Of a stretch of DNA of 64,000 nucleotides, positions 3,771 through 48,876 are shown piece by piece. The number at the start of each line of letters is the position of its first letter. Position 1 is the stretch's first letter. The notes below the pieces were generated by a model, which was given only the letters and a program-made list of their open reading frames with translations, did not search any database and had not been told where the DNA came from. Location of the stretch: positions 40,453 through 104,452 of the IMG/VR virus record IMGVR_UViG_3300010883_000007. One strand, written 5' to 3'. The translations under genes were made by a program, and so were the position numbers. Source of the stretch: a virus.

Positions 3771-3775
3771 AACTC

Positions 3776-4744: not shown

Positions 4745-4751
4745 CAGTAGA

Positions 4752-4781
4752 AGTATACTATGTCTATGTATTGTTGTTCAA
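4752..4781 (-). promoter_or_regulatory. sigma70-type promoter candidate for primase (probably leaderless)
   Basis: TTGAAC-18 nt-TATACT, then only 7 nt to the ATG at 4744. Confidence 0.5.
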
Positions 4782-5336
4782 CACGCCTGCAAAAGCCACA
4801 ACATACGCGTCTGCCATATCATAACACCCGGGCTCCAGAATCTCCTGGCCTCGTCTAGGGCCGCTCTTAAGCACTTTGAGCGGCCACTGATAATCATCAT
4901 CGAGACGATTGGAGACCCAGTCCAGGACCTGCTGCTTGGTTGTTTTCCCACAGACTGCTTCCTTCTGCAGACGGAGACCCACACTCTTTCTTGCAGAGTT
5001 CACATTAAGAAACTCAGGTCTTATCTTAAACGTCGATTCGCTCAAGTATGAGACCACACCGTTAAATCTGGCCAAGGAAGCTAAGGTCTTGGCAGATGAA
5101 AAACCCCTTCGAAAACGCTGTAGATTCTCCTCAACGAACACCCGTTCTACAGGATGTTGGCATTGCAACTCCTGGAGTACGTCTAGAACCCGCTGGGCCT
5201 TGCTGAAGGTATCTTTCCAACCACTTAGGTGTATACACCCCATTTCAACCTTAGATACGCTCTGGTGTTCATCTGTGTATAGAACACACCAGCCAGTCTT
5301 AGAGGTAGAAATATCCAGTCCCAAACAGCATAACAT
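4764..5336 (-). CDS. ruvC: RuvC-like Holliday junction resolvase
   Basis: LGLDISTSKTGW, VFVEE, K..V, DMADAYVVA. ATG overlaps the upstream TGA (TGATG). Confidence 0.8.
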   Translation of the reverse strand: MLCCLGLDISTSKTGWCVLYTDEHQSVSKVEMGCIHLSGWKDTFSKAQRVLDVLQELQCQHPVERVFVEENLQRFRRGFSSAKTLASLARFNGVVSYLSESTFKIRPEFLNVNSARKSVGLRLQKEAVCGKTTKQQVLDWVSNRLDDDYQWPLKVLKSGPRRGQEILEPGCYDMADAYVVAFAGVLNNNT

Positions 5337-8300
5337 CAATAATCGATCCTCAACCTAAAGAGATAACCATCTGAGTCCCTCTTCACAATGGGTTGGGCCA
5401 AGTTGGCCCTCCCTATTATATTAAAACTCTCATCGTGAAGATTTACACTTGTAATGTAATTAAATTGGGACGCTGTCTCATTGGCATAGTCTGTGGGCTT
5501 AAGCGCTTTAAACGTCGGATTGGAGGAGGAATTGACAGATCCCTTGGGACAGGGCACGTTTATCTCCAGAACGTGCACGTTGTGCTCGCCTTCGAAACTG
5601 GTCGTCCACTCATCAGCTCCGAAGATGGGGATGTTCGGTGTCTTCACAACAACAATACCCTCCTCGTAGATGATATTGCCCACAGCGTTCCACGTGGCGT
5701 GCTTCGATAGGGAATCTGCCCGATAGAGGCCTCCGTGTCCGTCATCCCTGAGGGTCACTGCTAAAACACCCCCAGATCCGGTTACACTAGTGTCAGTTAC
5801 CTGAAACGATCCGCGCCTAATCTGATTCCCATAAAAGAGGTTCGACACATCAAAGAATGCCACCTGATTTGAGGAGGGATCCTTCGTCCTATTCAGGATC
5901 GTCAGGATACCAGAGTTGGCTACCCCCGGATCCTCGGGTGGAGCACCCTCCAGCGAATTGGAAATGGAAACGTCGGTGTTATCCTTTCCTCCCGTGAATG
6001 CGGTCACTGTCCTATACAGGTTTGTGAGGTTGTGAGCTATAGCAGTATTCCCTATAGTCCCCACTGCCCGCTGATTGAGGGTTACCACTCCGGCGTAATC
6101 ATCGGTGTCGGTGGCATCTCTGCTGGCCAGGATTAGTCCTGCGTGTCCGGTGGATCCGTTGACAGCAGATACAAAATTGTCGTAAACAGTATCAGCATCA
6201 GAGCTGTTGGCATTGACTAACACCTTACCCCCCTGGACATCACCGGTGACAGACTCGACCTCGTACACGAACCGATAGACCTTCGTCACTCTGTCATATG
6301 TGTTTGTCACCGCGTTCTTTCGTAATCCCGTTAGACGTATAGTTGCCTGATCAGCTGTCTTGGTTGGTGTGTAGATAATCTCTGCAGAGGCAGCCTGAGT
6401 TCCTATTCCCTGCCTTCCGCGGTTCTCGCTGGTGATATCGATTAACCCCTCCGGCAGGGATGCAGTGCTTACCATGTTCGAGAGGTTGATGAGACCGTAG
6501 TCAACATTTCCAGCGTCATTGACAAATCGATCGATCAGTGAACCGGATACCGGAACTTCGGCCCGGGTGCCGGACTTGAGAAGACCGAATGATGGACTGA
6601 ACCTTCCGTTGTCACACGGAAGGACTGTGAGATTTCTCTTTCTCAGGGAAGCATTTCGGTAGAGCCACAGGTTACACAGCTCAGCCGTGTTGGTGGTCAC
6701 ATCAATTGTCGATCCTGTTAGATTGAAGAGACGGGGATAAAGACCGTTAACAAACTCTCGGGTGAAGTTTGGAAGGTTCAACATGTGACCGCCGACGCCG
6801 AATGACAGGGCAACGTTGAAGGGGTCATCTGTGGTTGATCGAACTGTCTGGAACGGCGTCTGCATCACCTCCCGCTCCTTGGTCTCCTTCACAAAGAAAG
6901 GGGGCACGTAGAAGATCAGGTCAGTCGGAAGGGGATCAGGGCCCGACTGGGCAGACAGGGCAATCTGTTGCAGAGAGTGGTAGGTATTGAATATCTTGAG
7001 ATCGTGGATCTCAGCCCTCAACGGGTGCGAGAACCTCACCTTGTGTTCTGCTATATCATTGTGTGTGGCATCCACATTGGACATGTCGTACGAGTCATTC
7101 GTGAACATGCTGGTAACGCCCTCACGGTGGGCAGCATTAGCGTTGAAGAACTGTGCCACAACTCCCGAGCCATCCAGGGTACCATTGTTGGGACCGTCGT
7201 AGAAATTACCCACAAAGACAGCGTCCGGATCACCAATCGGAGGTTCGAAAGCCTGGGGCATCACTGAAGCTGATGGTATTAAAAATGTCGCATCCTCCTT
7301 GCCGTCAATCACGAACGATCCCGTGCCGCTATTGACTGAGGCTCCCCACCGAATGGCGACATGATGCCAGTGATTCCTCATGAGCGCGTTGTCCTTCGAG
7401 AAGAACACAAGGTCGCTGGGAACTTCCTGGGTGCTACTGCCGAGAGTTGGAAAGGGCTGGCTCACATTATTAGACGTGACCGCAGTGTTCCTGGGGGATG
7501 TCTCAGCGCTGTTGCTTAGCTGCAACATTATCCTGAATCCATCAGTCTTGCCGTTAATATCCTTCGACGAGCCCGAAATCAGGCTCACTGCGTACGAGGA
7601 AGACATGTGAATGATCGTGCCCGGATGATACACTGTTCTTCCAGGCTCAGTGCCACCGGTAAATGTAGACGGAACGTTAACACTAGTACTTGCGTTCCAT
7701 GCCGCGGCGTTGTCTAGGGTAATTGCAGTATTACCCGCACTTGTTTTGACAGCACCTTGTGTGAGTAAGACTACTCCCGCAGAGGGATTTGTAGCTACTA
7801 TATCCAGGGATGATTGTGCATTAATCTTTGCAGCAAGATCTGCAGCAGTTCCCGTACCGCCGCCGCCGGCGGCAGCAATTCCACTTACAGCAATATCTCC
7901 GAGTCCCCCAGTGAAAGTTGAGGGGACATTTACACTGCACACGCTGTTCCAGTGAGCAGCGTCATTTACAGTGATTGTAGTATTACCACTTCTACCAGTA
8001 GTTGAACCTTGGGTAATGGTTATTGCAGCAGTAGATGCTGATGCTGTCATATCTAGCGCAGACTGAGCATTAATCTTTGCAGCAAGATCTGCAGCGGTTC
8101 CTGTGGCGCCGCCACCTGCAGCATAGATTCCGTTGAGTGCAATATTGCCTGCAGAGACACCGTTGTTCTCGTTATCAACTTCAAACGTAACTGAGGTTCC
8201 ATCACCATCAATCAAATTGATTGTACTGCCTTCGTTAGGTTTGTCAGTTAGCGTAAAGGTGGCTGCTGGTGGTTTAAGACCATTATTCTCGTTGTCTATT

Positions 8301-9019
8301 TCAAAAGCAACCGAAGTTCCATCGCTGTCTAGCAAGGTGACAGTGGACTCTTCAGTAGGCTTATCTGAGAACGTGAATGTTGCGGTAGAAGAGAATTTCG
8401 AGTCGTTCGGTTCAGACGAATACTTCGGATTGATATAGAAATCGAACGTGAACTCCTTGTGGGGTGAGTACATGAAGTTGTCGACCTCATTGGTCTCCCC
8501 GGAAGAAGTGGCTGCCGGGTATATCATCACAGATCCCGTGGGAGTTGTGTCGGACGTGAAGAAGTGCAGGGTGTGGTAGTTGGGATACGCCCACTGCAAG
8601 CTTGGGTACGTGCTCCGGTACGTGGGAAAGAGGACCTTCCTCACAACATTCTTACGAAGAGTGTTGCTGGTCAACTTGAAGGAGGGCTCGAATCGAATGA
8701 CTTCCACCTTCTTCTGGCGTGCGGGTGAGGCGGAGGAGGAGTTGACTGTCTCTAGATACTGACTTAGATTACCAGAAATATCAGATGAGCCTCGGGAATC
8801 CCTTACTGTCTGGACCCTCAGTTCCTCAATATCAGCTGTTCCCCAGCTATCACCACCGTAGTCCTCGAGGGGTTGTGCCTCCTTCTCAATAGTCGAGGCA
8901 CGAGAGAAGACTTTAACTGACCCTGTCAGTCCTGAGGAAGATGATGTGAATGTCCGGCGGGGGTTGGTTGTGAGAGTAAATCGTTCAAGATTCTCTATTG
9001 GTATTGGTATAATTGCCAT
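5336..9019 (-). CDS. 1227-aa virion baseplate/fibre protein with LamG-like domain, three insertion modules and collar-like C-terminal domain
   Basis: FTFDFYINP...WHHVAIRW...FVIDG...EIHDLKIF (LamG-like). C-terminus YITSVNLHD..NIIGRANLAQPIVKR..FRLRIDY is paralogous to 9058-10338. Confidence 0.7.
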   Translation of the reverse strand: MAIIPIPIENLERFTLTTNPRRTFTSSSSGLTGSVKVFSRASTIEKEAQPLEDYGGDSWGTADIEELRVQTVRDSRGSSDISGNLSQYLETVNSSSASPARQKKVEVIRFEPSFKLTSNTLRKNVVRKVLFPTYRSTYPSLQWAYPNYHTLHFFTSDTTPTGSVMIYPAATSSGETNEVDNFMYSPHKEFTFDFYINPKYSSEPNDSKFSSTATFTFSDKPTEESTVTLLDSDGTSVAFEIDNENNGLKPPAATFTLTDKPNEGSTINLIDGDGTSVTFEVDNENNGVSAGNIALNGIYAAGGGATGTAADLAAKINAQSALDMTASASTAAITITQGSTTGRSGNTTITVNDAAHWNSVCSVNVPSTFTGGLGDIAVSGIAAAGGGGTGTAADLAAKINAQSSLDIVATNPSAGVVLLTQGAVKTSAGNTAITLDNAAAWNASTSVNVPSTFTGGTEPGRTVYHPGTIIHMSSSYAVSLISGSSKDINGKTDGFRIMLQLSNSAETSPRNTAVTSNNVSQPFPTLGSSTQEVPSDLVFFSKDNALMRNHWHHVAIRWGASVNSGTGSFVIDGKEDATFLIPSASVMPQAFEPPIGDPDAVFVGNFYDGPNNGTLDGSGVVAQFFNANAAHREGVTSMFTNDSYDMSNVDATHNDIAEHKVRFSHPLRAEIHDLKIFNTYHSLQQIALSAQSGPDPLPTDLIFYVPPFFVKETKEREVMQTPFQTVRSTTDDPFNVALSFGVGGHMLNLPNFTREFVNGLYPRLFNLTGSTIDVTTNTAELCNLWLYRNASLRKRNLTVLPCDNGRFSPSFGLLKSGTRAEVPVSGSLIDRFVNDAGNVDYGLINLSNMVSTASLPEGLIDITSENRGRQGIGTQAASAEIIYTPTKTADQATIRLTGLRKNAVTNTYDRVTKVYRFVYEVESVTGDVQGGKVLVNANSSDADTVYDNFVSAVNGSTGHAGLILASRDATDTDDYAGVVTLNQRAVGTIGNTAIAHNLTNLYRTVTAFTGGKDNTDVSISNSLEGAPPEDPGVANSGILTILNRTKDPSSNQVAFFDVSNLFYGNQIRRGSFQVTDTSVTGSGGVLAVTLRDDGHGGLYRADSLSKHATWNAVGNIIYEEGIVVVKTPNIPIFGADEWTTSFEGEHNVHVLEINVPCPKGSVNSSSNPTFKALKPTDYANETASQFNYITSVNLHDESFNIIGRANLAQPIVKRDSDGYLFRLRIDY
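5987..6394 (-). repeat. insertion-module copy (single)
   Basis: AASAEIIY...KVYRF...AVNGSTGHAGLI...VTLNQRAVGTIGNTAI...AFTGG. Confidence 0.7.
7652..8390 (-). repeat. insertion module with a second complete copy nested inside (inner 7904-8266)
   Basis: Outer N-half ATFTFSDKP...FEIDNENNG; inner complete copy AATFTLTDKP...STFTGG; outer C-half ...AADLAAKINAQ...STFTGG. 29-nt identity at 7818-7846 and 8067-8095. Confidence 0.85.
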
Positions 9020-9057
9020 TTAACGCCGTCATCTTGAAACTTCGGTTAACCGATTCA

Positions 9058-10338
9058 CTAAAAGTCCAAACGAACCCGGAAGGTGAGATCCCGCTCATCG
9101 TTCTTCTCAATAGGTCTAGAGAGTTTTGCAACTGCCAGTAAATTGCCGAACTCATCATGGAGGCCAATCGTTGTTGGGAAGGAGAACGATCTCTGTGTGT
9201 CCTGTCCCTGGTCGATCACTCGAACGCGACCGGATGAATTTGTGTACGTTGGGTTCGTAGAGAAGTTGAACTCATCTGCGGTCGCCCTGCAGAAGACCAG
9301 CGTTGAATTAATCATTGTGATATTCTGGAAGGTCATCGCTGTCAGGGTTCCCGAGGAGAATCGGGTGGTTGAGAGGTGGTTGATAATATCATCGATTGAC
9401 GCTGACACAACAAAATCTGGGATGTACTTCGCATTAGGATTACCCGAGAAGATTGACTTTGTAGCGTCAGCAACATTCTCAAAGCCGTGGCCTATTACCA
9501 TCGTTCCGGTGGCTAGAAGTCCGTCAGGTGAATACTGATTCATTGCCTTAATGACTCCGGAGACGTGCTGGGTACCCGATATCACCTTTGCGAGGTCGAG
9601 AAGCACTGTTCCATGATCGTAAAAGATCAGGCCGACTCGTCGGGCTGTGTTGGATGCGGCGACAATGTTCGCGACGTCGCCGCCGAATACTCGTCGAGTG
9701 TTGGTTGCAGCTCCAATGTCTGTAAAGATCACTGACCCCGACTCGCTGGTGATGTTCAGTGTAGGCCGAGGTGGGTGGTTGCCCGTCTCAGTGGCAGTCA
9801 TCGTTCCTGTCTGATAGAAACGCATCGCAAAGGTCTCTTTCTTGATCTTGTCCCTTGCAAATAGGCGTTTGAAGGAGACAAACATGGCCTCGTCGATCCG
9901 ATCACCCACGTCTGTGGACCCAACTGGCGAATAGAAGGCTGAATCTCCATTACCCAAGAGTGCCTGAGCGTACTGCTTGTATATATCCACCTTCTCTCTC
10001 ATCATTACTGAGCTCGATGCGAACAGAAGTTTTCCTGCGGAGTCTTGCCCTGTGGAAGCATTAGTTACTGTTGTTCCGGATGCATGGAGCCCCACAGTCA
10101 GGTCGAAGATTGGGTTGGCAGTTTGTAGCGAGAAGTCCTGATCATTTACTGTCTGGAACAGCGAAGAGGTTACTCCTGGGCCCACGCCTCCTGTAACAAA
10201 GACTTGGTACGCGCGGCGCGTCTGTGATCCAGATATGTCCTCTTGAATAATATCGACAAGCTGATTCAGCGTTGAGCGTCGGACCTTGATGTCCTCAGGT
10301 TGTATTCTCTTAAAGCTTCCACCTGTTAATTGTGGCAT
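9058..10338 (-). CDS. virion baseplate/collar-like structural protein
   Basis: C-terminus FCRATADEFNFSTNPT...TTIGLHDEFGNLLAVAKLSRPIEK...FRVRLDF resembles the C-half of tail-collar (DUF3751-like) domains; structural-module context. Confidence 0.6.
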   Translation of the reverse strand: MPQLTGGSFKRIQPEDIKVRRSTLNQLVDIIQEDISGSQTRRAYQVFVTGGVGPGVTSSLFQTVNDQDFSLQTANPIFDLTVGLHASGTTVTNASTGQDSAGKLLFASSSVMMREKVDIYKQYAQALLGNGDSAFYSPVGSTDVGDRIDEAMFVSFKRLFARDKIKKETFAMRFYQTGTMTATETGNHPPRPTLNITSESGSVIFTDIGAATNTRRVFGGDVANIVAASNTARRVGLIFYDHGTVLLDLAKVISGTQHVSGVIKAMNQYSPDGLLATGTMVIGHGFENVADATKSIFSGNPNAKYIPDFVVSASIDDIINHLSTTRFSSGTLTAMTFQNITMINSTLVFCRATADEFNFSTNPTYTNSSGRVRVIDQGQDTQRSFSFPTTIGLHDEFGNLLAVAKLSRPIEKNDERDLTFRVRLDF

Positions 10339-10356
10339 TGTTTATCTTACCTCTAC

Positions 10357-11073
10357 TTACGCTGTGGGTCTTGTAATGGTCACAGTGAAGTCCTTTCGGT
10401 ACCCCGACTGATTACCCACCACTGCAACAACGCTTGTGATTGTATTCTTGTCCCCGAGATTTCCGTAAATTGTAAAAATTGTGTCATCGAGGCCTGGTTG
10501 AAGAACTAGGTTAAATCTCACCTGGGCTCCGTTCTTATTGTTGACCCCGGTCTGCTCAACAAGATAGGATGATATCCTCGTTGTGGACTCAATATTAAAG
10601 GGTGACCGCCCCTCCACAGCCAGAAATCTATCAGGTGTCATAACAATAAAGGAGGTGTCTGAAACACCCTCAGGAATTCTGGTCTCGCCTTCAATTGTCT
10701 GCTCAAACACCACTTCACGGGAGGAATTATTGCTTGTATTAAATGCTACTGTGTTTCCGGTGAGGCCCGCTGTCCCCTGCAGTGACACAGTTGGAAGGTT
10801 ACGAACCGTTGGGTCAGGAAGGCTCAACATGCGAAACTTCTGCGCAATACCCGACTGTGTCTGGGCTTCGAAGATCGGCGTGTTCTTAATGATCTTCTCC
10901 TTACCCACAGTCCTTCCAAACTTTTCGATAATGGTGTAGTCGATCTCATCGTCTGACAGAGAGAAGAAAGATATCATAAAGTCGCCCTTGTTAGCCGCCA
11001 AAAATTCTCTTCCGATATCTGTCAGGACAGCATCAACAATAATGTTATTGGTTGAATGATCAAGGAATCCCAT
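10357..11073 (-). CDS. virion structural protein (collar-like N-terminal domain)
   Basis: MGFLD..IIVDAVLTDIGREFLA..F.ISFFSLSDDEIDY. Start placed at ATG 11073 with GGGGAG SD; the ORF track starts at 11103. Confidence 0.6.
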   Translation of the reverse strand: MGFLDHSTNNIIVDAVLTDIGREFLAANKGDFMISFFSLSDDEIDYTIIEKFGRTVGKEKIIKNTPIFEAQTQSGIAQKFRMLSLPDPTVRNLPTVSLQGTAGLTGNTVAFNTSNNSSREVVFEQTIEGETRIPEGVSDTSFIVMTPDRFLAVEGRSPFNIESTTRISSYLVEQTGVNNKNGAQVRFNLVLQPGLDDTIFTIYGNLGDKNTITSVVAVVGNQSGYRKDFTVTITRPTA

Positions 11074-11173
11074 CTTATTTCTCCCCTTGAGACTTTCCTG
11101 CACTCCACAGGAGTGAATGTTTAAGTACTCTATAACCTCTTGATATCACGCTATTCTCCTAAACGCTTGCAGA

Positions 11174-11180
11174 TAAGTAT
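11174..11180 (-). promoter_or_regulatory. candidate late-promoter heptamer ATACTTA
   Basis: AT-rich intergenic gap. A second near copy GTACTTA at 11122-11128; the same ATANTTA motif lies upstream of other genes. Confidence 0.35.
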
Positions 11181-11231
11181 AATGAATATTAGCTAGACCG
11201 TAAACAGTATCTGCTGATATGAATCTTATCC

Positions 11232-13046
11232 TCATCGTCGCACACGACGCTGTGTCTGTCGATCTCTGAGGTTTATTGTCACTGTTCGAGCCTTCTGCCG
11301 GTCCACATTGATTATCTGGAATTTGTAAAGACCCTTGTCTCTGTCCGTTGCCAGAAGCTTTAAGTCCTCACCATGTTCGCCTCGAACTGTTAAGTATTCA
11401 GGATCTAGATAAATTCGCATGCTTTGATGACCGCTGTCCTTCATAACGTCCTCGGTTATCCTATTTGTCGTGATATTTTTCGAAAGAGTTGGACTCACAA
11501 ACATGTTGGGATACTGCTTAGGAGCGCCCGGTCTGGATATATTTTCTAACTTGAGAGAGTTGGTCATCCTGTCAAAGTACACTCTTGTTTGTGCACCGTA
11601 ATTGGATGTAAGGCTGTGAGCATCAATTGAGCACACTGTGTAGATAAAGTCGCTGTCCCTATCAAAATCAGCGTCAATAAAGTAGGTTCTGCTTCCAGGG
11701 AGCATATGATTTATACTCTCATCGACTGATTCGTTGGTATGTGACTTAATCTCAGAGTCATCAAAGTCAAGCTGCGCAATTATTGTAAAAGGCTCTTCTA
11801 TGTTTTTTCTACGAAAAACCTGGAACTTCTTAACATCTCGCTGGGATGATACTGGGAACTGCCAATTGATGTTTAAACCTGAGGACTCGGGCATGTAGTA
11901 GTAGAAAATGCCATCAGGCTCTGGGGGCGGCACATGTTCAACACACTGGACCACCACTTGTGGGCTTGGGCGGGACTTGACTAAAGCCCGTGCGAGATAA
12001 GTTCCTGCAGCCCTTCGACGAGTGGCATTCTGCCAATATGTTGCTTCAACAATAAACACAGCGCTGACAGTGTATGCGTACGACATACCGTATTTTAACT
12101 TGGAATCAATTGCGCTGGACACATGGGAGCCATTCATGTACATCCTCGTCTGTCTTCCTCGTGTGCCGTCAGAAAGTATCTCGTACTTGTCAATTACATA
12201 GCCTACAGCGCCTACTTCTGGTAGGCGAGAGTGTGTCACAAGAAGCTCTTGAAAGGTCCTTAAGTTTGGATCATAATCTACATCAATGTTTATCTCAGAA
12301 TTTGTATTCTGTCTGGCACTGCCCTGTCTTCTTACTAAGTAATCTGATCTCAATCCCTGTGATATCCCTGAGGCAGCTAAGGGATTGGCATACATCTGTC
12401 GGCTTATGTCGCCCAAAAATCTCTCGTCTGATTTCACTGTGAAACGAAAGTTAGACTGACTGGCTAGTGTGTCAGTCACTATCTTCTCTCCCACCTCGTT
12501 AACAAACGCAATTCCCTGCTCCTCCCGATCCAAAAGCAGCTCAAGAATTTGCTCCCCGGGGACCTCGTCAGGTGTTAGCGCGTTGATTGCCTCAGCGATC
12601 TCTGTCTGAGATGCACTTCCCTCTAGAGACGCATCTTTAACCCGATCCCTCATAAACTCATCCAATAGATCCTGCAGGCGGCGCTTAATGCCTGTGTCCT
12701 GAATTGTCATTCGCTTTTGAAAGGGAATCGAGATCTGATCCTCTGCTTGAATTCTGTATCTGTACTTCTGAACAAGGCCACTTCGTGCCTCAGCGTCATA
12801 CCGCCCATGATTAACTCGAATGGTTGGCCAATCAAGTCGAATGTATCTGGGCACTGTCTTTTCCGTTGTTTTATTGTCTATCAGCGCTTGTCGGCTCTCT
12901 GTTACCTCTCCGTAGGCAGCAGTAGCGCCAGAATCACTTACCTTCTCGTCTTTTACGAAAAAGTTATAGACAAAATTTGCTGTTATGCGAACTGGATCCG
13001 GAAAATTTGCGACACAGATCTCTTTAGATGGATAGCTCTCAGACAT
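11232..13046 (-). CDS. hypothetical virion protein with fibronectin-III-like segments
   Basis: 604-aa ORF with YVIDKY...YAYTVSAV and INWQF...FQVFRR...FIYTVCSID patterns. Confidence 0.5.
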   Translation of the reverse strand: MSESYPSKEICVANFPDPVRITANFVYNFFVKDEKVSDSGATAAYGEVTESRQALIDNKTTEKTVPRYIRLDWPTIRVNHGRYDAEARSGLVQKYRYRIQAEDQISIPFQKRMTIQDTGIKRRLQDLLDEFMRDRVKDASLEGSASQTEIAEAINALTPDEVPGEQILELLLDREEQGIAFVNEVGEKIVTDTLASQSNFRFTVKSDERFLGDISRQMYANPLAASGISQGLRSDYLVRRQGSARQNTNSEINIDVDYDPNLRTFQELLVTHSRLPEVGAVGYVIDKYEILSDGTRGRQTRMYMNGSHVSSAIDSKLKYGMSYAYTVSAVFIVEATYWQNATRRRAAGTYLARALVKSRPSPQVVVQCVEHVPPPEPDGIFYYYMPESSGLNINWQFPVSSQRDVKKFQVFRRKNIEEPFTIIAQLDFDDSEIKSHTNESVDESINHMLPGSRTYFIDADFDRDSDFIYTVCSIDAHSLTSNYGAQTRVYFDRMTNSLKLENISRPGAPKQYPNMFVSPTLSKNITTNRITEDVMKDSGHQSMRIYLDPEYLTVRGEHGEDLKLLATDRDKGLYKFQIINVDRQKARTVTINLRDRQTQRRVRR

Positions 13047-13057
13047 ATGTCACTTTC

Positions 13058-19710: not shown

Positions 19711-19718
19711 ATAAACTC

Positions 19719-20660: not shown

Positions 20661-20666
20661 GTCTAG

Positions 20667-20673
20667 TAACTAT
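20667..20673 (-). promoter_or_regulatory. candidate late-promoter heptamer ATAGTTA
   Basis: ATANTTA motif 6 nt upstream of the ATG at 20660; no obvious SD. Confidence 0.3.
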
Positions 20674-20724
20674 CCCAACTATAAAATGTCAGACCCATCG
20701 ATTGTGAGATTCCAAAAGTCATCC

Positions 20725-21537: not shown

Positions 21538-21555
21538 TCTTATGTCTCCTAGACA

Positions 21556-22038: not shown

Positions 22039-22048
22039 AAATCACATC

Positions 22049-31462: not shown

Positions 31463-31465
31463 ATT

Positions 31466-34400
31466 CTACTTCTTGAGACCCCCGAATGCTATGGAGTCTG
31501 TGCCCTTATCCATACCAATATACACAAAACCTGCTCCGGCGGAAACATGGTTTCTCTTGAGACGGTCTTGAGCTGAGCCCGTCATGGCTGCCAGAGCAGT
31601 CGTCATTATGCCGTCTGCCAGACCTCCGGACTCACCTCCTGTGAAGGATGTTGCGACAGCATTTGTTAGGTTATCAGTCACAGTGGTGTTTCCTTCAGGA
31701 CCGCCGTCTGCCTGTGTTAGGGTTAACAGAGAGGTTCCGGATGGGTTAACCACAGTTATCTTTCCGTTGTGCCCAAGGGCTGTTTCGATGCACGCCTTGA
31801 GGGATACAGCAGCGGCGATCGGAGTGGCTCCGTAAAACTTGGGTGGATCCGTCGTGAGGTCCTCTGTCGCAGCACTGGTATTTGCGTAATACGCTTTTGA
31901 TGTTCCACTCCTTGAGATGATTGTGACAGTTCCACCATTGGCCGGAATCCGCATATCAACACTAAAATTGGCCACGGTTGAGGTTATAACAGTAGTCCAG
32001 CTGTCTCCGCTGGCCTGGGTTAACGAAAGGACCTGAGCTCCATTCGCCTGGGTTGGGACTGCTCCAACTGTTAGCCTACTACCGTGTCCCTTGGGATGTT
32101 CAATGGCCGCCTTGAGCTGAACCAGGAACTCATTCTGTGTGTCCAGGGAAGATCCGGTCGCCTTAATTGCGACAGCGATATCCCCATCATCCGCTGTTGT
32201 TGCAGAGCCCGTGTCTGACCCATCCTCCAACACAGCTCCCGTAGTAACGGTTGAGAGCTCCTCATCGACGATCCTGTAGACTCTCGTCCTGGGGGTCGTC
32301 GTACCCTTTATCGAGACAATTGTCACCTTCTGCCCCTCAGCCATGCCCGAGGCCGCATCGCCGTCGGCGACCGACACGTTCGCTAGTGCGTCATCACCCA
32401 AGACGGCAGACGGAAACTGGACTGTCGCTGTGGCCTTGATGTCTGTCCGCGTCTGCTCGTCCGTGATGCCCGCTATTCTTATGTACGCGTCCGATCCCTC
32501 TTTAAAGGGCTCGAGCTGATTAGTCCTGGGCGCAAACAGGCCCTGCATTGTGACTGGACCTGTTGATGTTGCGCCGGGGGGGAGTCTTGCTTCGAAGGTC
32601 TCGTCATCCTCCTGGGAATTAAAGGCCTGAAAGGTCGGCTCTAGAAGATCAAGCCCAAAGGTCTCAACTCCGTCGAAGTACATATCCATACCCGTCTCAT
32701 TGGGATCGTACTGCTGATCCATAAGGGTCGACTGCCTGAATATATCCTCTGTACACATATCAGCACGGATGCCGCGCGCGGTGTAGGGCAGCTCAATTGA
32801 GGATCGATCTGCGAGGCCTCTGATTGGAAATACCTCCATCACACCATCCATTAGGCTACGAGCTGATGCATCAACCATCATCTCCGGAACGACCAAGCTG
32901 AGTGGTGGTGTTCGAACAATATCAGCAGCGTTGGTAGTCATTAGGTCGTTGTACTCACTGCCGTCTTGGTAAACGTACAGCGCCTGCCCGAGGTCACGCT
33001 GGTCCCTGGCGTGATTGATTGCCACACCCAGGCCGGAACTTCTGGTGGATGTGTCAAGCTGTGGGAGGGATTTCACACCCCATGCAGGCTCGCGAATGGG
33101 AGAGTTGACCTCTAGAGATATATCAGTTAATGCCCATAGATCGTTCGACCCAGAAGCATGGTTAACTTGTACCCACTTTACACTCCATGGGCCGGGGCCA
33201 TACGGACTTAGTGACTCTGTAACTGATAAAACTGTTCCTGCTGCTAGCCCGTAGTCGCCTCCGCCGATAAAAGATACTACTGAACCACTCGCTAGGGTCT
33301 CAATTATTGTGGTGTTACCTGCGGGCCCGGTTGATGCCTGTGTAAGTGTTAACACACCTGAACTGTTATCAGCCATAGTCACCTTTCCATTGTGCCCAGT
33401 GGCTGCTGCAATACAGGCTGCGAGAGAAGTGGCGGATGCGGCGGCGGTACCGATGGTGGGGACTGGGGGGATTGCTAACAAGTCCTGTGCTGCACCAAAC
33501 GTATACACTCTAGAAGTTTCATCTGTTGAAACAATTGTTACCGCTTCGCCCGTTATAGTTGATCCGGTAAATGTCACAATTGCTGTCGCAGATGTATCTG
33601 CAGTCGCATGAGTCCTTACTGTATTCCAGGATCCGCCCTGACCAGAGAGGTCACCCCTTATCTGAAAGTGTAAATCCTGATCAGCACCGGGAACTCCGCC
33701 AGCAGAGGTCATTCCGGAAATAGCGCCCTCGGGCCCTGAAGACGTGTCGCCTCGAATCACACGATACTTTACAGTTACTTTATCCTGTAAGCTATTTGCC
33801 CTCACACCCCCCAAGCTTCCCGTGACACTCAAAAATCTATCGCCTGTGTCTGATCCCCCTACAAACCCTGAAGATGTCACATTAGTGAGTGAATTCACAA
33901 TTGTCGTATTTCCAGAAGTTCCAACAGCAGCTTGGGTTAGCTCAATCTCAACAGACTCATAATTTACTGTAATGCTGCCATTGTGACCGTTAGCGTGAGC
34001 TATACAATCTGATAAAGATTCTGCTGCACCTTCTTCATCGGTGTTTAAGAACTTTGGTGGATCTGATGTAAGATCTTCGGAGGCGGCGGCGACATATGCT
34101 TTTACCAGGCCTGCGTGGTCAGTTATCTCTATTGTCTCTCCAACTACGGTTGCGCCATCGAAAACAATAATTGCTGTGGCTGCCTTGAGAGGCTGTCCTC
34201 TCATAACCCACCACTTGTTGCCTGTTGTAGTAGCTGTGAGTACTGCCGGTGCGGTACCGGGATGCGTGCTTCCATTCGCCTCAAAAATATCAACGTTTAG
34301 GGTACCAATTGCAGCATCAAACGATCCCGCGGATGTACCGGATGCCGATCGGCTTGAGGACACAGCCATATTGCTCGGCGCGTCTAGATCATTATAGAAT

Positions 34401-34621
34401 CTATACGTCTCCATTCGCTGGCCATCGACAATCTTAACAGGGTCATTGATAGGCTGGGGCTTAAGCCCTATAAATCCGTACAGGTGATCCATTGTTCGGC
34501 AGTTGATTCCCTGCCGATACTGGTCTATTGCTGTGGTTCCGGACAGGGAGGGCGGGTATACCAGGATTGCTTGGCTTCCCTTGGAGTGGGAACCTGACAG
34601 GACTCTCTGTGTTGACGCCAT
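31466..34621 (-). CDS. 1051-aa mosaic virion protein: interrupted reelin-like jelly-roll domain plus four insertion modules
   Basis: GGAGG SD. DLHFQ..GGSWNTV...VKWVQ..SNDLWALTDISL (reelin-subrepeat-like); modules shared with 22049-31462. Confidence 0.7.
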   Translation of the reverse strand: MASTQRVLSGSHSKGSQAILVYPPSLSGTTAIDQYRQGINCRTMDHLYGFIGLKPQPINDPVKIVDGQRMETYRFYNDLDAPSNMAVSSSRSASGTSAGSFDAAIGTLNVDIFEANGSTHPGTAPAVLTATTTGNKWWVMRGQPLKAATAIIVFDGATVVGETIEITDHAGLVKAYVAAASEDLTSDPPKFLNTDEEGAAESLSDCIAHANGHNGSITVNYESVEIELTQAAVGTSGNTTIVNSLTNVTSSGFVGGSDTGDRFLSVTGSLGGVRANSLQDKVTVKYRVIRGDTSSGPEGAISGMTSAGGVPGADQDLHFQIRGDLSGQGGSWNTVRTHATADTSATAIVTFTGSTITGEAVTIVSTDETSRVYTFGAAQDLLAIPPVPTIGTAAASATSLAACIAAATGHNGKVTMADNSSGVLTLTQASTGPAGNTTIIETLASGSVVSFIGGGDYGLAAGTVLSVTESLSPYGPGPWSVKWVQVNHASGSNDLWALTDISLEVNSPIREPAWGVKSLPQLDTSTRSSGLGVAINHARDQRDLGQALYVYQDGSEYNDLMTTNAADIVRTPPLSLVVPEMMVDASARSLMDGVMEVFPIRGLADRSSIELPYTARGIRADMCTEDIFRQSTLMDQQYDPNETGMDMYFDGVETFGLDLLEPTFQAFNSQEDDETFEARLPPGATSTGPVTMQGLFAPRTNQLEPFKEGSDAYIRIAGITDEQTRTDIKATATVQFPSAVLGDDALANVSVADGDAASGMAEGQKVTIVSIKGTTTPRTRVYRIVDEELSTVTTGAVLEDGSDTGSATTADDGDIAVAIKATGSSLDTQNEFLVQLKAAIEHPKGHGSRLTVGAVPTQANGAQVLSLTQASGDSWTTVITSTVANFSVDMRIPANGGTVTIISRSGTSKAYYANTSAATEDLTTDPPKFYGATPIAAAVSLKACIETALGHNGKITVVNPSGTSLLTLTQADGGPEGNTTVTDNLTNAVATSFTGGESGGLADGIMTTALAAMTGSAQDRLKRNHVSAGAGFVYIGMDKGTDSIAFGGLKK
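31634..32437 (-). repeat. type A module with nested type B module (inner 31955-32389)
   Basis: Outer KATATVQFP | inner ALANVSVADGDAASGM...QNEFLVQLKAAIEHPKGH...NFSVD | outer IPANGGTVTIIS...SLKACIETALGHNGKI...SFTGG. Confidence 0.85.
33260..33592 (-). repeat. insertion-module copy (type A)
   Basis: SATAIVTF...SLAACIAAATGHNGKV...LTLTQ..GNTTI..SFIGG. Confidence 0.85.
33854..34186 (-). repeat. insertion-module copy (type A)
   Basis: KAATAIIVF...DLTSDPPKF...SLSDCIAHANGHNGSI...LTQ..GNTTI..GFVGG. Confidence 0.85.
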
Positions 34622-37600
34622 CTAGAACCTCCGGAGGTGGGCTATAAACTGCTGCATCAGTATTTGCCCCTTGAGGCCGTGCCTGTCATTGGGACCGAGA
34701 TACATGTCGTGGTAGGCATGGTGATACTTGGCACGCTCGAACATGTGTGACTCAACGACAAAGTTGACACCCAGGAACTTCGTCTTTCGTGGCACCAACC
34801 TCTCAATCATCATTCCCATCGAGCTATCGAACCACTTGAAAAACTCAAAGAATTTCTTGTAATTGACTTTGTCAGTCAGGCGGTTAAAATATATATCCCT
34901 GAGATCAACTAAGTCCGGGTAGTCGGGCGAAAAAACCAATTCTGGGGCTCCCAAGATATTATCCAGAAGATCCAGCGTCGAGAATAGGGAAACCATATCC
35001 TCATTCAATGCCTGAATACCTGACACTTCAATTGAAAATCTCGTGTCATCCACCGGGTTCTCGTTGGGTGGGATAGCATAAATTGGTGCGAACGAGGTCC
35101 CGAACTTCTTCACGTTACTCTTATGCTTATGACTCCTGACTCGAACTTTGTTTCCGGTGCGGGCCTGATCAAAGTTAGGAGACAGCATCGAGTATCTAAA
35201 CTTCTCCGGGTGTATCATCTGCTTCAATGGCTCAAAGCCGGATCCCGTCAGGTGAAAATTTCCCTGTGAGAAATCAAATATTGAGAGCTCCCCGTCGGCA
35301 TTGGACTTTGTGACAGACTGGTCAGTGGAAGCATCAATTCTGAGCCTTCCGAAGGATCCTGATCTGCTCGTCTTAAAATTGAAGTTGATGTGTGGATCGT
35401 CGCTTCCCAGGGACTTGAAATTGTAGATGTGCTCCTGTGTCTCGCGATCAGTCATCTCCTTTGACCAGAACCTAATATGTCCAACTCTCCCTGCGAAGAA
35501 GGTATGTCTGAACATGCTGTCGTAGGTCGTCCTGTTGAGGAGATTAGAATTAACAGACATGGATATACTCTGGGAGCCTATTACGAAAAATGATCCGGAG
35601 ATATTGTGAGTTGTCGACACGTTCTCCAGGAGATTATAGGTCGTGCTTTCACCATGATCGTTGAAATACTTGGCATTGCTCTCATACGCAGTAAGTCGTC
35701 CCTCATTGATCTTTCCGGCGTGGAGATAGTACGATGAAGACGTGATAGACCCAGTGAGATCATTTCGAGCTCGACCCATGGTGATGTGCCATTTATCTCC
35801 ATCAAAGATATCAACACCGGTTAGGGGAAGCACCATGGGAATTACTCCCGATATTGTCGGCTTGGCAATGAGAGATAGGGATCCTGTCTGCTGGTCTTCC
35901 AAAGACCCAGAGAAAGCCAAGAGATTCATTATGAGTCCACCGGTACCGGAGGCGTCGCCGGCAGTTGTGGTGCCGGTCACGCAGAATCTGGCCAGACTCT
36001 GGGTTAACGGATAACCTGATCGACCCATACTGCCCCTTCGGCCTGGAAACTGGTAGATTGCCTCGTAGGTCCACGATCCTGATGTCAGCAGTCCATCGTT
36101 GGGGCTGTTAGAGATGCCGTGAGGGCTGTAATCATAATTCCGCTCGACGGACTTGTCAAGTGTCTGGTAGTTAGTCAGGTGCTGCACCATGGTTCCCACG
36201 ACATTCGGAATACCAGGCTCAATTCTGGACGCTGAGAGGTGTGGTGATGTTATGAAGGGCTTGTTGAGATCATTTCCTTGTGCTGTTAGGTTCTGACTCA
36301 CATTTGCAAAGGTTCCGGAGAAGTCCAGCATTGTACTCACCTCCGACGTAATATCCCTCACGTCCGAGATCCTTCTCGTCTTTGCACCACCAAACTCTCT
36401 AAACCTGAAAGACTTGTCCGGATTGATACCCATATCCCTCATCAGGGTCTTGATGCTGTGTATTGTCCCCTTGGATCGGACAATCTCTCCCATGTCGGCC
36501 AGAATTCTCCTCCAGATCTGATTCTGGACGTACTGCAGTGGACGATTGCTTATGATACTGTCAACTGTCATATCTACACCGTCGGAGAATTGGGACAGAG
36601 AGGCATCAGACGCCATGTCAGGCAGAACGAATCCATGAGCACTTCCCAAAGATAACAAGAATTGATCAGCAATCGAGCCCTCAGGAACCTGATCAACAAA
36701 AGTAAGCTTGCCAAACTGGTCCAAGTGCATTTTTATCTCATCAAAGAACTTGGCCCAGACAAAGAGGAAAGCACTAATAATCTGGGGGGATCCTAGCTTT
36801 CCCCCACCGGGCATATCCTTGCTCGATCCATAATCTTCACCCCATTCGCCTGTCTCCTTCTCGAAACCCTCAAAGTGAGAGGCCTCCAGCAGATAGTGCT
36901 TGGGAATAAGCTTCGTGATCATATTGGGATTGTTGGAATCGTACACAGAGGCAGACGAGAGGAGGCGCTGATTGAGCGTTATGAGATCTGGATACGTTGG
37001 AAACAGAACAGGGCAGTCCTCATCTGACTCCCTGGCAACCGGTATGCTTAAGCCCCGAAGTATCCTTAGATCTGTGATATAGTTCACAACTGTTGAGTGA
37101 AGTGCGTTTCCTGAGCTATCTAACACCAAATCATTAGAGGAGTATGAACCGGTTGGCTCATTGAATTTGAAGTACAGACGAAGATCCTTGCGTGGATAGA
37201 TCGTCTTGTTGCCTTCCTTCTTCTGCATTCCCACGCTTCTGGGTTCGTGGAATACTCGAAACTCATCAAGAGAACCAGATAGAGTCTGCTGGAACTCTAG
37301 AGCCACATCGCCCTCGGATTCCCATAACCCGGCATCGTGCTTGGTTCCGCTCCCAATCAGGAGGGGAGAGGTAGTTATACCAAAGTCTCCCATCTCGACC
37401 CTCGAGGATGTGGTAATAAGAGCAAAATCCCGATAGAGCTGCATCCTGTGTATATTGGGTGTTCGATTCAGTGTGGCACACACGTGATGAAACTTACCCT
37501 TCTCTAGCTGCATGGAAGCACTCATATATCTGGATCCAGACGAGGCCAGGAACACAACAGACGATGATGGAACTGTTGATGTCGATGAGGAGAGGAATAG

Positions 37601-38239
37601 TGTGAATCCGTCACTACCCGTGAGCTTCTGGGCAATTACTTGATTTCCCGTGTCTACCCCCAAGTCCGGAACTCGAAAGTGAAAGTCAAACGAGACTGTT
37701 TTAGTGCCCGGGTCAACAACAGGCTCACCAGATCGATTCCTGGCCAGGGAGGGATAATATGATCCAGCAGAGTCGCTGACCCTTATATGAGTCCCTAGCT
37801 CTGCAGCGAATCCCCCTTCTGGATTTTCATCTGTCTGTGTCCCAGAGAAGTGTAGAAAACCCCTGTGTTTTGGAAAAGAATCGTAGACATACTTCTCAAA
37901 TCCTGTGAGGTTGTCATAGAATACGAGTACATCCGGGCGCTGGCCATCGAATGGGAAGGAGTTGATTATCTGATCGAACGCCGTGTTGACCTTGGCTTCG
38001 GCCGAGTTGAAGAAGGTGTGGTTCTCAAACTTGGACCAGTCGACCGGGAGTTGCTGTGTTGACTTGACACCCGCATCGGGAGGGTCGTATCTAAAGGATC
38101 CTGTTTTGCTCTGGATCGATCCACTGTGGAGGGCTGCTGTCTGATTGGCAACAGTGGATCTATTCGATGTTAGCTCCCTCAAGACAGACGGTGAAAAGAG
38201 GGCTTTCCCTCCTCCAAAGTACGAACTATCTCGAGCCAT
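34622..38239 (-). CDS. baseplate wedge protein (P2 gpI / T4 gp7-like core) with two LamG-like domains
   Basis: Core ..FLLSLGSAHGF..IWRRIL..RSKGTIHSIKTLM..G (gpI-type KGT motif). LamG segments FHHVCATL...LSGSLDEFRVF and KWHITM...GRVGHIRFW. Confidence 0.65.
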   Translation of the reverse strand: MARDSSYFGGGKALFSPSVLRELTSNRSTVANQTAALHSGSIQSKTGSFRYDPPDAGVKSTQQLPVDWSKFENHTFFNSAEAKVNTAFDQIINSFPFDGQRPDVLVFYDNLTGFEKYVYDSFPKHRGFLHFSGTQTDENPEGGFAAELGTHIRVSDSAGSYYPSLARNRSGEPVVDPGTKTVSFDFHFRVPDLGVDTGNQVIAQKLTGSDGFTLFLSSSTSTVPSSSVVFLASSGSRYMSASMQLEKGKFHHVCATLNRTPNIHRMQLYRDFALITTSSRVEMGDFGITTSPLLIGSGTKHDAGLWESEGDVALEFQQTLSGSLDEFRVFHEPRSVGMQKKEGNKTIYPRKDLRLYFKFNEPTGSYSSNDLVLDSSGNALHSTVVNYITDLRILRGLSIPVARESDEDCPVLFPTYPDLITLNQRLLSSASVYDSNNPNMITKLIPKHYLLEASHFEGFEKETGEWGEDYGSSKDMPGGGKLGSPQIISAFLFVWAKFFDEIKMHLDQFGKLTFVDQVPEGSIADQFLLSLGSAHGFVLPDMASDASLSQFSDGVDMTVDSIISNRPLQYVQNQIWRRILADMGEIVRSKGTIHSIKTLMRDMGINPDKSFRFREFGGAKTRRISDVRDITSEVSTMLDFSGTFANVSQNLTAQGNDLNKPFITSPHLSASRIEPGIPNVVGTMVQHLTNYQTLDKSVERNYDYSPHGISNSPNDGLLTSGSWTYEAIYQFPGRRGSMGRSGYPLTQSLARFCVTGTTTAGDASGTGGLIMNLLAFSGSLEDQQTGSLSLIAKPTISGVIPMVLPLTGVDIFDGDKWHITMGRARNDLTGSITSSSYYLHAGKINEGRLTAYESNAKYFNDHGESTTYNLLENVSTTHNISGSFFVIGSQSISMSVNSNLLNRTTYDSMFRHTFFAGRVGHIRFWSKEMTDRETQEHIYNFKSLGSDDPHINFNFKTSRSGSFGRLRIDASTDQSVTKSNADGELSIFDFSQGNFHLTGSGFEPLKQMIHPEKFRYSMLSPNFDQARTGNKVRVRSHKHKSNVKKFGTSFAPIYAIPPNENPVDDTRFSIEVSGIQALNEDMVSLFSTLDLLDNILGAPELVFSPDYPDLVDLRDIYFNRLTDKVNYKKFFEFFKWFDSSMGMMIERLVPRKTKFLGVNFVVESHMFERAKYHHAYHDMYLGPNDRHGLKGQILMQQFIAHLRRF

Positions 38240-39789
38240 TATGGATCCACTCTAAACCGCAGTGCCAGGTCATCGATGACATACTCTTGACCCCTGTCAA
38301 CAATAAGAAACTCAAAACTATAAACCCTTCCAATAAACAAATTGGACATATGAAACTCAAAATACATTCCGGCACTGTCGGATGATAACCTCGTTCCACT
38401 GCCTGTTTTCTGGAAAGGAATAGCTATATCGCCTGATAGTGTATCTCGAACCCGGTAGTACACCTCTTCCAGAATCACACTCTTAAGCTCGTAGCTTCGC
38501 TTCTTTGGCGCAGCGCGCTCGGCCTCGTGGTCCTGAGCAAAGACTCTGAACTTTACTTTATCCCCACGAGTGTAATCTCCCTTAGCATTTGTTATAATGA
38601 TAGAGGGTTTTCGAGAGGTAAAGTTGGAAGCTGTTCGAGTTGGAGCTTCCAGCGTCAGGCTTCCCGTGTGGAAGGCAACAGTCCCATCGAGAGAATGCCA
38701 GATCTCGTCAAAGGTGAGTGATCCACTCTTAATAGCGAAGTCTGTCACCCGATCAGTCGATATTACAGTGGATGTCTCACTCATAGGAATCGCAAAAGAT
38801 GCAGAGTACACACCTGGAAGACCTACAGCGGGTGTTGTGGAAGCAACATGTTGGGATGCTGTCACCACCTTCGAGAAGGAACCTGACATTATCGTGACAG
38901 CCAAACAGTTGTTGCCTGACAAGTCTGTTAATGCAGAGCCTGATACTATATTCGCGGGCCGGCCGCGATGGAAGTTATTCAGAAAGACAGATCCCGAAAC
39001 ATCAAAGAAAAATCCGCGGTGGTGATCGTGAATCGTGTCATCAAATGACACATGAATCATGGGTTGCTTGTAGATCTGGCGACTATGTCGGGAGAAGAAT
39101 CGCTTGACAAAGCGTGTCTTTGTATCTGTCTCCTCAGTTCCAGAGTATGACAGGCGGAACCCGTGATTGGGTATCATTCCAGCGAGGATACCTGATACTA
39201 CAGTTGTCACATCAACACTCAGGTCTTCGTTACCGTCTTTAAAGACCTGAACTGCGAAGAGATCCTGCAGACCGTCTCCATCATTAAGGTTACCCGAGGC
39301 TATTATATCAATACTACTCTCACCCAACTGCCCCAGCGCATCGGCGCCGGCGGTGTTCCATGCTACAACTGCTCCATCTGCATATGAGGCAGTTATGAAA
39401 TTGCATGCATCCAGATCGCCGTAGCTTCCCACGTCGCGACCGATACCCTCGTCAAAACTCTGCGAGAGGGGAAAGACTGCCAGACGAAAGTTCTGGGGTG
39501 TTGCTTGGCCTGCCCTTAAGGCCTTCATCTTGAGAGAGCATTTGAACGAGCTGTGATTGACATCCAGAATGGATCCGGTAAGCTCTATCAGCTTGTCAAA
39601 ATCAAATTTGATAAGTGATCTCGAGAGCTCAATAGGGTTTGTCTCGCCGGCGAGGGTTGATTCACTGTACAGCTTGAAGAGGTCCAGGGTACCCGCACGC
39701 CCGGTATTGGCGTCGGTTGCCCTGAACTTATTGCTCAAGATCTTGTTTGTGATGTATGCATCCCTGCTAGACGTGATTATCAGGTACAT
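38239..39789 (-). CDS. virion protein with N-terminal DNRLRE/CBM96-like domain
   Basis: DAYI..D.NTG...SRSLIKFD...FPLSQSFDEG...DVT..V...NHGF...FSR..P.I.V pattern. Confidence 0.6.
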   Translation of the reverse strand: MYLIITSSRDAYITNKILSNKFRATDANTGRAGTLDLFKLYSESTLAGETNPIELSRSLIKFDFDKLIELTGSILDVNHSSFKCSLKMKALRAGQATPQNFRLAVFPLSQSFDEGIGRDVGSYGDLDACNFITASYADGAVVAWNTAGADALGQLGESSIDIIASGNLNDGDGLQDLFAVQVFKDGNEDLSVDVTTVVSGILAGMIPNHGFRLSYSGTEETDTKTRFVKRFFSRHSRQIYKQPMIHVSFDDTIHDHHRGFFFDVSGSVFLNNFHRGRPANIVSGSALTDLSGNNCLAVTIMSGSFSKVVTASQHVASTTPAVGLPGVYSASFAIPMSETSTVISTDRVTDFAIKSGSLTFDEIWHSLDGTVAFHTGSLTLEAPTRTASNFTSRKPSIIITNAKGDYTRGDKVKFRVFAQDHEAERAAPKKRSYELKSVILEEVYYRVRDTLSGDIAIPFQKTGSGTRLSSDSAGMYFEFHMSNLFIGRVYSFEFLIVDRGQEYVIDDLALRFRVDP

Positions 39790-42141: not shown

Positions 42142-42166
42142 AGACAATACACCTCTCGCTTAAGGC

Positions 42167-47560: not shown

Positions 47561-47561
47561 C

Positions 47562-48815: not shown

Positions 48816-48848
48816 ACTTGGTACTTCACTCCATCAATGGACCTACCA

Positions 48849-48876
48849 ATCATAACAAACGGAAGATATCAGTAAA
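48849..48876 (-). promoter_or_regulatory. sigma70-type promoter candidate
   Basis: TTTACT-16 nt-TATGAT with extended -10 TG, upstream of the GT4 pair. Confidence 0.45.

Follow-up and report, generated by a model that had tools for sequence, protein, structure and literature searches.

GtfA and GtfB form the O-linked N-acetylglucosamine transferase pair of serine-rich repeat adhesins, in which GtfB is non-catalytic. General O-glycosylation in Bacteroidota uses the sequon D-[ST]-[AILVMT], takes place in the periplasm and depends on a lipid carrier. In protein folds, the type II' two-residue β-hairpin places Gly at position L1 and Ser, Thr or Asn at position L2. TibA is heptosylated by TibC on serine only, and the modified serine stands next to Gly or Ala (PMC4358343). 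Virion proteins of mycobacteriophages are glycosylated by phage-encoded glycosyltransferases (GTs) (Freeman et al. 2023, as cited in PMC12619734). Here we describe an ordered tripeptide, [ST]GS (Ser or Thr, then Gly, then Ser), in the virion proteins encoded by a 64,000-nucleotide stretch of viral DNA (positions 40,453 to 104,452 of IMG/VR record IMGVR_UViG_3300010883_000007), which we call the window. With a probability of about 0.42, we read it as an O-glycosylation acceptor motif on outward-facing virion proteins.

Enrichment of [ST]GS in virion proteins

The window makes up the final 64 kb of a 104,452-bp IMG/VR virus contig, whose CheckV rating of 28% complete suggests a jumbo phage of roughly 370 kb. 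Every gene of the window lies on the minus strand. The motif-rich proteins and the two baseplate wedge proteins next to them are the following (aa, amino acids).

5336-9019, minus strand: 1227-aa structural protein; 7 [ST]GS, shuffle expectation 2.07
9058-10338, minus strand: 426-aa structural protein; 2 [ST]GS, and 7 [ST]G[ST] against 1.3 expected
16720-22038, minus strand: four smaller structural proteins (996, 313, 270 and 160 aa) with a mild [ST]GS excess (3, 2, 2 and 2 against 0.98, 0.29, 0.65 and 0.23 expected); the 270-aa protein matches minor-tail-protein PHROGs
22049-31462, minus strand: 3137-aa giant fibre or baseplate protein; 19 [ST]GS (expectation 6.84) and 32 [ST]G[ST]
31466-34621, minus strand: 1051-aa fibre or baseplate protein; 8 [ST]GS, expectation 2.15
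34622-38239, minus strand: 1205-aa baseplate-periphery protein with a LamG_3 domain; 13 [ST]GS (expectation 1.93) and 18 [ST]G[ST]
38239-39789, minus strand: 516-aa baseplate protein, a jelly roll resembling carbohydrate-binding modules (CBMs) and DNRLRE, followed by immunoglobulin (Ig)-like sandwiches; 7 [ST]GS, expectation 0.82
39799-41646, minus strand: gp6-like baseplate wedge protein, 615 aa, PHROG match; 0 [ST]GS
41659-42147, minus strand: gp25-like inner baseplate wedge protein, 162 aa, PHROG match; 0 [ST]GS

A preliminary description of this DNA had counted 13, 7, 19, 8 and 7 [ST]GS by hand in the 1205-, 516-, 3137-, 1051- and 1227-aa proteins and none in a 1047-aa Mre11-Rad50 protein or a 546-aa carbamoyltransferase. 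All of these counts are exact, and its estimate of about 2 sites expected in the 1205-aa protein agrees with the shuffle expectation of 1.93. Pooled, 14 structural proteins contain 66 [ST]GS where 19.2 are expected (z 10.8); the remaining 25 proteins of the window show no excess, with 5 against 4.1. The enrichment persists in both global and local composition shuffles. When the five proteins named above were shuffled within blocks of 10, 20 or 40 residues, about 15 sites were expected against 54 observed (z about 10), which rules out local Ser/Gly-rich stretches as the cause.

The order of the three residues matters. TGS and SGS rank second and third in enrichment among all tripeptides, and permutations of identical composition are 2-5 times rarer (GSS 11 and SSG 12 against 26 for SGS; TSG 5 and STG 5 against 28 for TGS). 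[ST]GS is still 1.6-2.0-fold over the expectation of a first-order Markov model, whereas NGS, DGS, AGS and GGS are at or below it, indicating that a hydroxyl before Gly and a Ser after Gly are selected jointly. At position 3, Ser outnumbers Thr by 66 to 36 in the window and by 47 to 4 in the Microcystis phage Mel-JY01. A hydrophobic residue stands immediately before the motif in 52% of cases and immediately after it in 48%, against a background of 30%.

As first described, the motif does not belong to a repeat: the flanks of 64 of 65 sites are unrelated. Recent copying of modules was rejected as a cause by the same flank clustering. Neither the 516- nor the 1205-aa protein has internal repeats; those of 3137 and 1051 aa (22049-34621) have many repeated modules in common, with BLAST segments that are 30-62% identical. 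The SAS and TAS tripeptides that the preliminary description had also pointed out do not hold up as part of the pattern, since [ST]A[ST] is not above chance (42 against 34.7 expected). The Bacteroidota sequon D-[ST]-[AILVMT] shows no enrichment in the 14 structural proteins (45 observed, 54.9 expected).

We also considered a cause at the level of DNA and rejected it. The codons used at the sites are diverse, and GATC is found at 27 of 66 motif Gly-Ser pairs against 28 of 80 other Gly-Ser pairs; the signal is therefore at the protein level. Over the whole window (1-64000) we counted 428 GATC, 1.7-fold the number of about 248 that base composition predicts. The 14 structural proteins (5336-41646) have a mild surplus of N-x-[ST] (135 against 110 expected, z 2.7), which the other proteins do not share.

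Location of the sites in the virion and in protein models

The excess is restricted to the outer virion. It is absent from the gp6-like and gp25-like proteins, the portal, the sheath core, the capsid core and the 25 non-structural proteins, and this restriction counts in favour of an acceptor role. The PHROG matches of the gp6-like and gp25-like proteins identify the module as the baseplate of a contractile tail. The genes for the 516-, 1205-, 1051- and 3137-aa proteins lie directly downstream of these two, the usual place of peripheral baseplate and fibre genes in contractile-tail phages. Pfam, PHROG and NCBIfam searches of the motif-rich proteins returned almost nothing beyond LamG_3 and a sub-threshold DNRLRE match. 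Of the folds named in the preliminary description, LamG is confirmed for the 1205-aa protein, whereas DNRLRE, at 21 bits in the 516-aa protein, falls under the cut-off. A PDB sequence search with the LamG segment gave one insignificant match only.

To the left of the window, the portal and the terminase have no [ST]GS excess, and in two tail-sheath paralogues and the major capsid protein the conserved core is free of sites, which places the sites of these three proteins in their outer parts. The sheath paralogues (1146 and 1055 aa; contig 17025-23681) have very large N-terminal extra regions, and all of their [ST]GS lie outside the conserved C-terminal sheath core.

We read the placement of 27 [ST]G[ST] sites from the secondary structure of AlphaFold2 (AF2) models of the 516- and 1205-aa proteins. 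In the model of the 516-aa protein (predicted local distance difference test score, pLDDT, 85), Ig-like sandwiches come after a CBM-like jelly roll; that of the 1205-aa protein has a lower score (pLDDT 69) but includes well-modelled jelly-roll regions. Three of the 27 sites are exact two-residue hairpins (302 in the 516-aa protein; 207 and 234 in the 1205-aa protein). Six are at strand starts (265 and 355 in the 516-aa protein; 321, 720, 785 and 881 in the 1205-aa protein), and the remainder comprise several at strand ends, two within strands and others in coil or low-confidence regions. The placement at turns foreseen in the preliminary description is borne out in part: judged from the secondary structure of these two models, the sites occupy strand starts, strand ends and hairpin tips and do not lie inside cores. 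The sites are internal to the polypeptides, at turns of folded baseplate, fibre, sheath and capsid domains. The occurrence of one ordered tripeptide across unrelated flanks and folds (jelly roll, Ig-like, outer parts of sheath and capsid) argues for a trans-acting reader rather than for the requirements of one fold.

Conservation of the sites among homologues

The protein collection contains more than 1500 homologues of the 516-aa protein, and we analysed the best 120, which are 49-91% identical to it. Each has 4-9 [ST]GS, against 0.9 expected. At sites 265, 283, 302, 355 and 375, Gly is conserved in 95-120 of the 120 sequences, and where the flanking positions change, it is nearly always between Ser and Thr. 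For the 1205-aa protein there are more than 1300 homologues; the 114 analysed contain 5-19 sites, with a mean of 11.6 against 1.9 expected, and 12 of the 18 sites of the 1205-aa protein are conserved in at least 60% of them.

Hydroxyl residues are retained at motif positions 1 and 3 with a frequency of 0.74-0.82, compared with 0.52-0.60 for other Ser/Thr. This retention, together with the lack of enrichment of NGS, DGS, AGS and GGS, indicates that the flanking hydroxyls are what is selected. The entire excess is confined to conserved or mid-frequency alignment columns.

Distribution of the excess across phages

Mel-JY01 and the Flavobacterium phage immuto (vB_FspM_immuto) are distant cultured relatives, with gp6-like proteins that are about 30% identical. 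Both show the excess in the baseplate-fibre block only (47 [ST]GS against 7.5 expected in Mel-JY01, 53 against 12.3 in immuto), and their gp6-like proteins have 0 sites each. The fibres of immuto contain periodic strings of the form hydrophobic-x-hydrophobic-[ST]GS-hydrophobic, as in repeated β structure. Among the environmental relatives in IMG/VR with enough downstream sequence, the excess is found in 36 of 36, with observed-to-expected ratios (O/E) of 2.8-8.0. The Rhodothermus phage RM378 has a cluster of unannotated proteins with 21 sites against 3.8 expected; the cluster gave a single weak PHROG match, to 'virion structural protein', and its identity as tail is therefore unconfirmed.

The excess is not general to phage tail proteins. 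It is absent from 20 structural proteins of T4 (8 [ST]GS, 12.1 expected) and from baseplate regions with giant β-rich wedge proteins in PA5oct (3 against 5.7), Atu_ph07 (4 against 4.9) and LR756511 (3 against 2.0). It is thus specific to the clade, which counts for the acceptor reading. The weakest excess is that of LR756508 (6 against 2.8, O/E 2.1), whose gp6-like protein is 44% identical to that of Mel-JY01. At those sites that align most clearly, the LR756508 orthologues retain Gly and have lost the flanking Ser/Thr, in alignments that are noisy at 24-38% identity. The fold therefore does not need the hydroxyls at those sites.

A pair of GT4 genes accompanies the excess

Two adjacent genes upstream of the baseplate module encode soluble glycosyltransferases.

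47562-48815, minus strand: GT4-A, a soluble GT-B glycosyltransferase; EX7E in 24 of 24 clade members
46379-47617, minus strand: GT4-B, a second soluble GT-B glycosyltransferase; EX7E in 28 of 28 clade sequences

Since EX7E is conserved in both, GT4-A and GT4-B are probably both active enzymes. Within the clade, the order GT4-A, GT4-B, two genes (one more in some), gp25, gp6, 516 and 1205 is found in 27 of 27 loci, these being the clade loci with enough upstream sequence. Mel-JY01 and immuto have clear orthologues of both GT4 genes, mutually adjacent and tens of kilobases from the baseplate genes. RM378 has a GT4-A orthologue with a weak GT4-B-like neighbour. In LR756508, GT4-A is present, and neither sequence nor profile searches found GT4-B. 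Judged from the presence of orthologues, GT4-B is the gene that best tracks the motif excess. Four further IMG/VR relatives are fragments, 28-55% complete and lacking the GT region, and are uninformative for co-variation.

The preliminary description had ascribed the motif to roughly eight glycosyltransferases next door. It is the GT4 pair at 46379-48815, and not the whole cluster, that follows the motif across lineages. The expectation that the motif would co-vary with GT content is supported in this form: the excess accompanies the pair, and LR756508, without GT4-B, has the lowest excess.

PDB sequence searches with GT4-A, GT4-B and a GT9 fragment of the neighbouring cluster gave generic or insignificant matches and no clue to the acceptor. 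The Mel-JY01 orthologue of GT4-A (record 83.4-84.9 kb) is in two open reading frames (ORFs), by a frameshift or a genuine split. Outside the clade, the proteins next closest to GT4-B are glycosyltransferases of actinophages. One GT4-B-like protein, gp28 of the Arthrobacter phage KellEzio, is encoded between the tail terminator and tail genes.

A hydroxyl-selected tripeptide that occurs in many contexts, only on the outer virion and together with a soluble GT pair is the pattern expected of a sequon read by an enzyme. We propose that [ST]-G-S at β-turns and strand edges, usually with a hydrophobic residue on each side, would serve as an O-glycosylation acceptor. The flanking Ser/Thr may carry the sugar, which would be attached in the cytoplasm, before or during assembly, by soluble phage glycosyltransferases; GT4-A and GT4-B may be the enzymes responsible and are the candidates throughout the lineage.

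The glycan gene cluster and neighbouring genes

The GT4 pair is one end of a 17-kb glycan cluster (46379-64000) upstream of the baseplate genes.

48888-64000, minus strand: rest of the glycan cluster, assigned from Pfam matches
48888-49775, minus strand: PD-(D/E)XK nuclease gene, between the GT4 pair and the rest of the cluster; in the same position in many clade loci
63235-63996, minus strand: GT9 fragment (44 bits), its N-terminus beyond the contig end

Among the products of the cluster are an epimerase, a UDP-sugar dehydrogenase, NeuB, a 2-hydroxyacid dehydrogenase and a CMP-sugar cytidylyltransferase. In addition to the two GT4 enzymes, Pfam identifies three or four GT2 transferases and the GT9 fragment as phage-encoded glycosyltransferases of the window, and a PLOD-like GT lies just below the cut-off. 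The remaining genes encode the carbamoyltransferase, a cupin, a HAD protein, a PfkB kinase and an adenylyltransferase-like protein. A comparison of the GT9 fragment with TibC gave no specific match. Among the about 18 proteins of the glycan cluster we found no transmembrane segment, and no flippase, polymerase or ligase was seen, in keeping with a soluble acceptor being glycosylated directly in the cytoplasm. In this phage, the cluster would extend and decorate the glycan through nonulosonate and ADP-heptose branches, GT2, GT9 and PLOD-like transferases and carbamoyl tailoring.

Two other groups of genes were noted nearby. A 368-aa Ala-rich protein of the baseplate module (42208-43314) has strongly hydrophobic segments (27 windows above a Kyte-Doolittle value of 1.6) and no family match. 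Three giant Gly-rich ORFs (1035, 1120 and 1901 aa) at contig 1420-14250, left of the window, contain no [ST]GS site; a PHROG search with the 1035- and 1120-aa ORFs gave no match.

Alternative explanations

The alternative that survives best is a purely structural one. Gly would act as a turn residue in a type II'-style Gly-Ser hairpin or strand cap, Ser and Thr would stabilise the strand ends, and the accessory β-sandwich and fibre domains of this phage super-group would have inherited the idiom, with no modification involved. We regard this as a serious possibility, only slightly less probable than the acceptor reading. It agrees with the three exact hairpins and the other strand-starting or strand-ending sites in the AF2 models, with the near-invariant Gly at conserved positions, with the location of the whole excess in conserved and mid-frequency columns while rare sites are at chance, and with the periodic hydrophobic strings in the immuto fibres. 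However, a plain turn should also take Asn, Asp, Ala or Gly before Gly, and only Ser/Thr are enriched there. Nor does a structural role fit the presence of the motif in several folds with unrelated flanks, the lack of an excess in the equally β-rich baseplate, fibre and giant wedge proteins of T4, PA5oct, Atu_ph07 and LR756511, or the loss of hydroxyls around a retained Gly in LR756508.

A number of observations weigh against an acceptor role for [ST]GS. Several sites are textbook two-residue hairpins of the form S-G-S-hydrophobic, and the motif Gly is conserved no more than other glycines; a structural role thus accounts for much of the conservation. Sites private to single or few homologues are at or below the chance rate, so that there is no sign of a continuing gain of new sites, and the non-virion proteins show no avoidance of the motif (5 against 4.1 expected). 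The co-variation is based on few complete genomes of shared ancestry and amounts effectively to one loss event, and the O/E of 2.1 in LR756508 is close to the 2.8 of the lowest relatives. The distant GT4-B-like gene of KellEzio lies in a structural module, yet this phage has no [ST]GS excess; we therefore rejected KellEzio as an independent replicate of the link between GT4 genes and the motif. The GT4 enzymes also match the Pfam family 'GT4 in conflict systems' and could act on DNA or another target; DNA glycosylation is raised for such phages in PMC12619734.

The interpretation offered in the preliminary description, phage-encoded O-glycosylation giving a glycan-coated virion, is accordingly supported in part. 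Shuffling, turn placement and co-variation with GT genes are in its favour, whereas the structural β-turn idiom predicts a similar placement and conservation.

Another use of the hydroxyls appears unlikely to us: phosphorylation, acylation, ADP-ribosylation, or direct hydrogen bonding to a polysaccharide on the host surface. The hydroxyl-specific conservation and the restriction to the outer virion would suit any hydroxyl-dependent function, and the N-terminal domain of the 516-aa protein resembles polysaccharide-binding CBMs. On the other hand, we found no kinase, acyltransferase or ADP-ribosyltransferase that tracks the motif, as the glycosyltransferase pair does, and the sites are scattered over many domains rather than gathered on one binding face.

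Chance, composition or repeats, i.e. a by-product of Ser/Thr/Gly richness, of low-complexity linkers or of recently copied modules, would be in keeping with the Ser-, Thr- and Gly-rich proteins and the modules that the 3137- and 1051-aa proteins have in common, but is refuted by the shuffles, the permutation and Markov controls, the unique flanks, the lack of internal repeats in the two most enriched proteins and the conservation of sites across hundreds of homologues.

Implications

The acceptor reading can be extended to a clade-wide 'glycan code', a proposal that we advance tentatively and at somewhat less than even odds. In thousands of aquatic jumbo and far-T4-like phages, the GT4 pair would read [ST]-G-S on every outward-facing virion protein, seeding a sugar coat that individual phages then elaborate. 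More than 500 IMG/VR relatives for one protein and more than 1300 homologues in the protein database give the size of the group. A literature search for an SGS/TGS sequon found no report of one. Were [ST]GS an acceptor site, tailed phages would have in it their first defined sequon of virion glycosylation, one that covers the surfaces of tail, baseplate, sheath and capsid in aquatic phages of a very large and abundant group. Sugars coating the receptor-binding organelles would matter for how hosts are recognised, for the stability of particles, for grazing and for the evasion of immunity or defence. The three cultured phages with the excess (immuto, Mel-JY01 and RM378) make the question directly testable. 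A purely structural motif would still be a very strong lineage-specific sequence idiom and a warning on the inference of sequons from enrichment alone.

Comparison with known systems

The type II' hairpin is a structural likeness for part of the sites: three of the 27 modelled ones are exactly S(strand)-G-S-hydrophobic(strand). It leaves unexplained the hydroxyl before Gly, the restriction to the outer virion in one super-group and the absence of the motif from the β-rich tail proteins of other phages.

The Bacteroidota sequon resembles [ST]GS in being a three-residue O-glycosylation sequon that was first noticed as a proteome-wide pattern. It differs in that it is not enriched in the structural proteins of the window, and virions assemble in the cytoplasm. 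For the related 'moraphages', PMC12619734 gives Bacteroidota as predicted hosts.

With GtfA and GtfB the window shares two adjacent GT4-like genes and an acceptor of the Ser-small-Ser type, and GT4-B gave a very weak PDB match to Gtf1 (E 0.007). Here, however, both GT4 partners keep EX7E in all 24 and 28 clade sequences, and the putative acceptors are isolated turns with unique flanks rather than long Ser-rich repeats; [ST]A[ST] is not enriched.

The bacterial autotransporter heptosyltransferase systems (TibC/TibA and Aah/AIDA-I) resemble what is proposed here in the cytoplasmic O-glycosylation of many serines beside small residues, such as S-G-G and S-A-A in TibA (PMC4358343). The window encodes putative ADP-heptose-type enzymes (the PfkB kinase and a cytidylyl/adenylyltransferase-like protein) and a fragment of the GT9 family. 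The bacterial enzymes are dodecamers that carry an iron-finger at the N-terminus, the part of the GT9 gene that lies past the contig end. In contrast to these systems, the genes that track the motif here are the GT4 pair and not GT9, and the motif is [ST]-G-S and not S-G-G.

The mycobacteriophage system, as cited in PMC12619734, is similar in its phage-encoded soluble GTs, and in the cytoplasmic modification of virion proteins and the glycan coat of the particle that are proposed for the present phage. Its glycans are on the C-termini of capsid and tail-tube subunits, whereas the candidate acceptor described here is an internal tripeptide at β-turns of baseplate, fibre, sheath-outer and capsid-outer domains in aquatic jumbo myophages.

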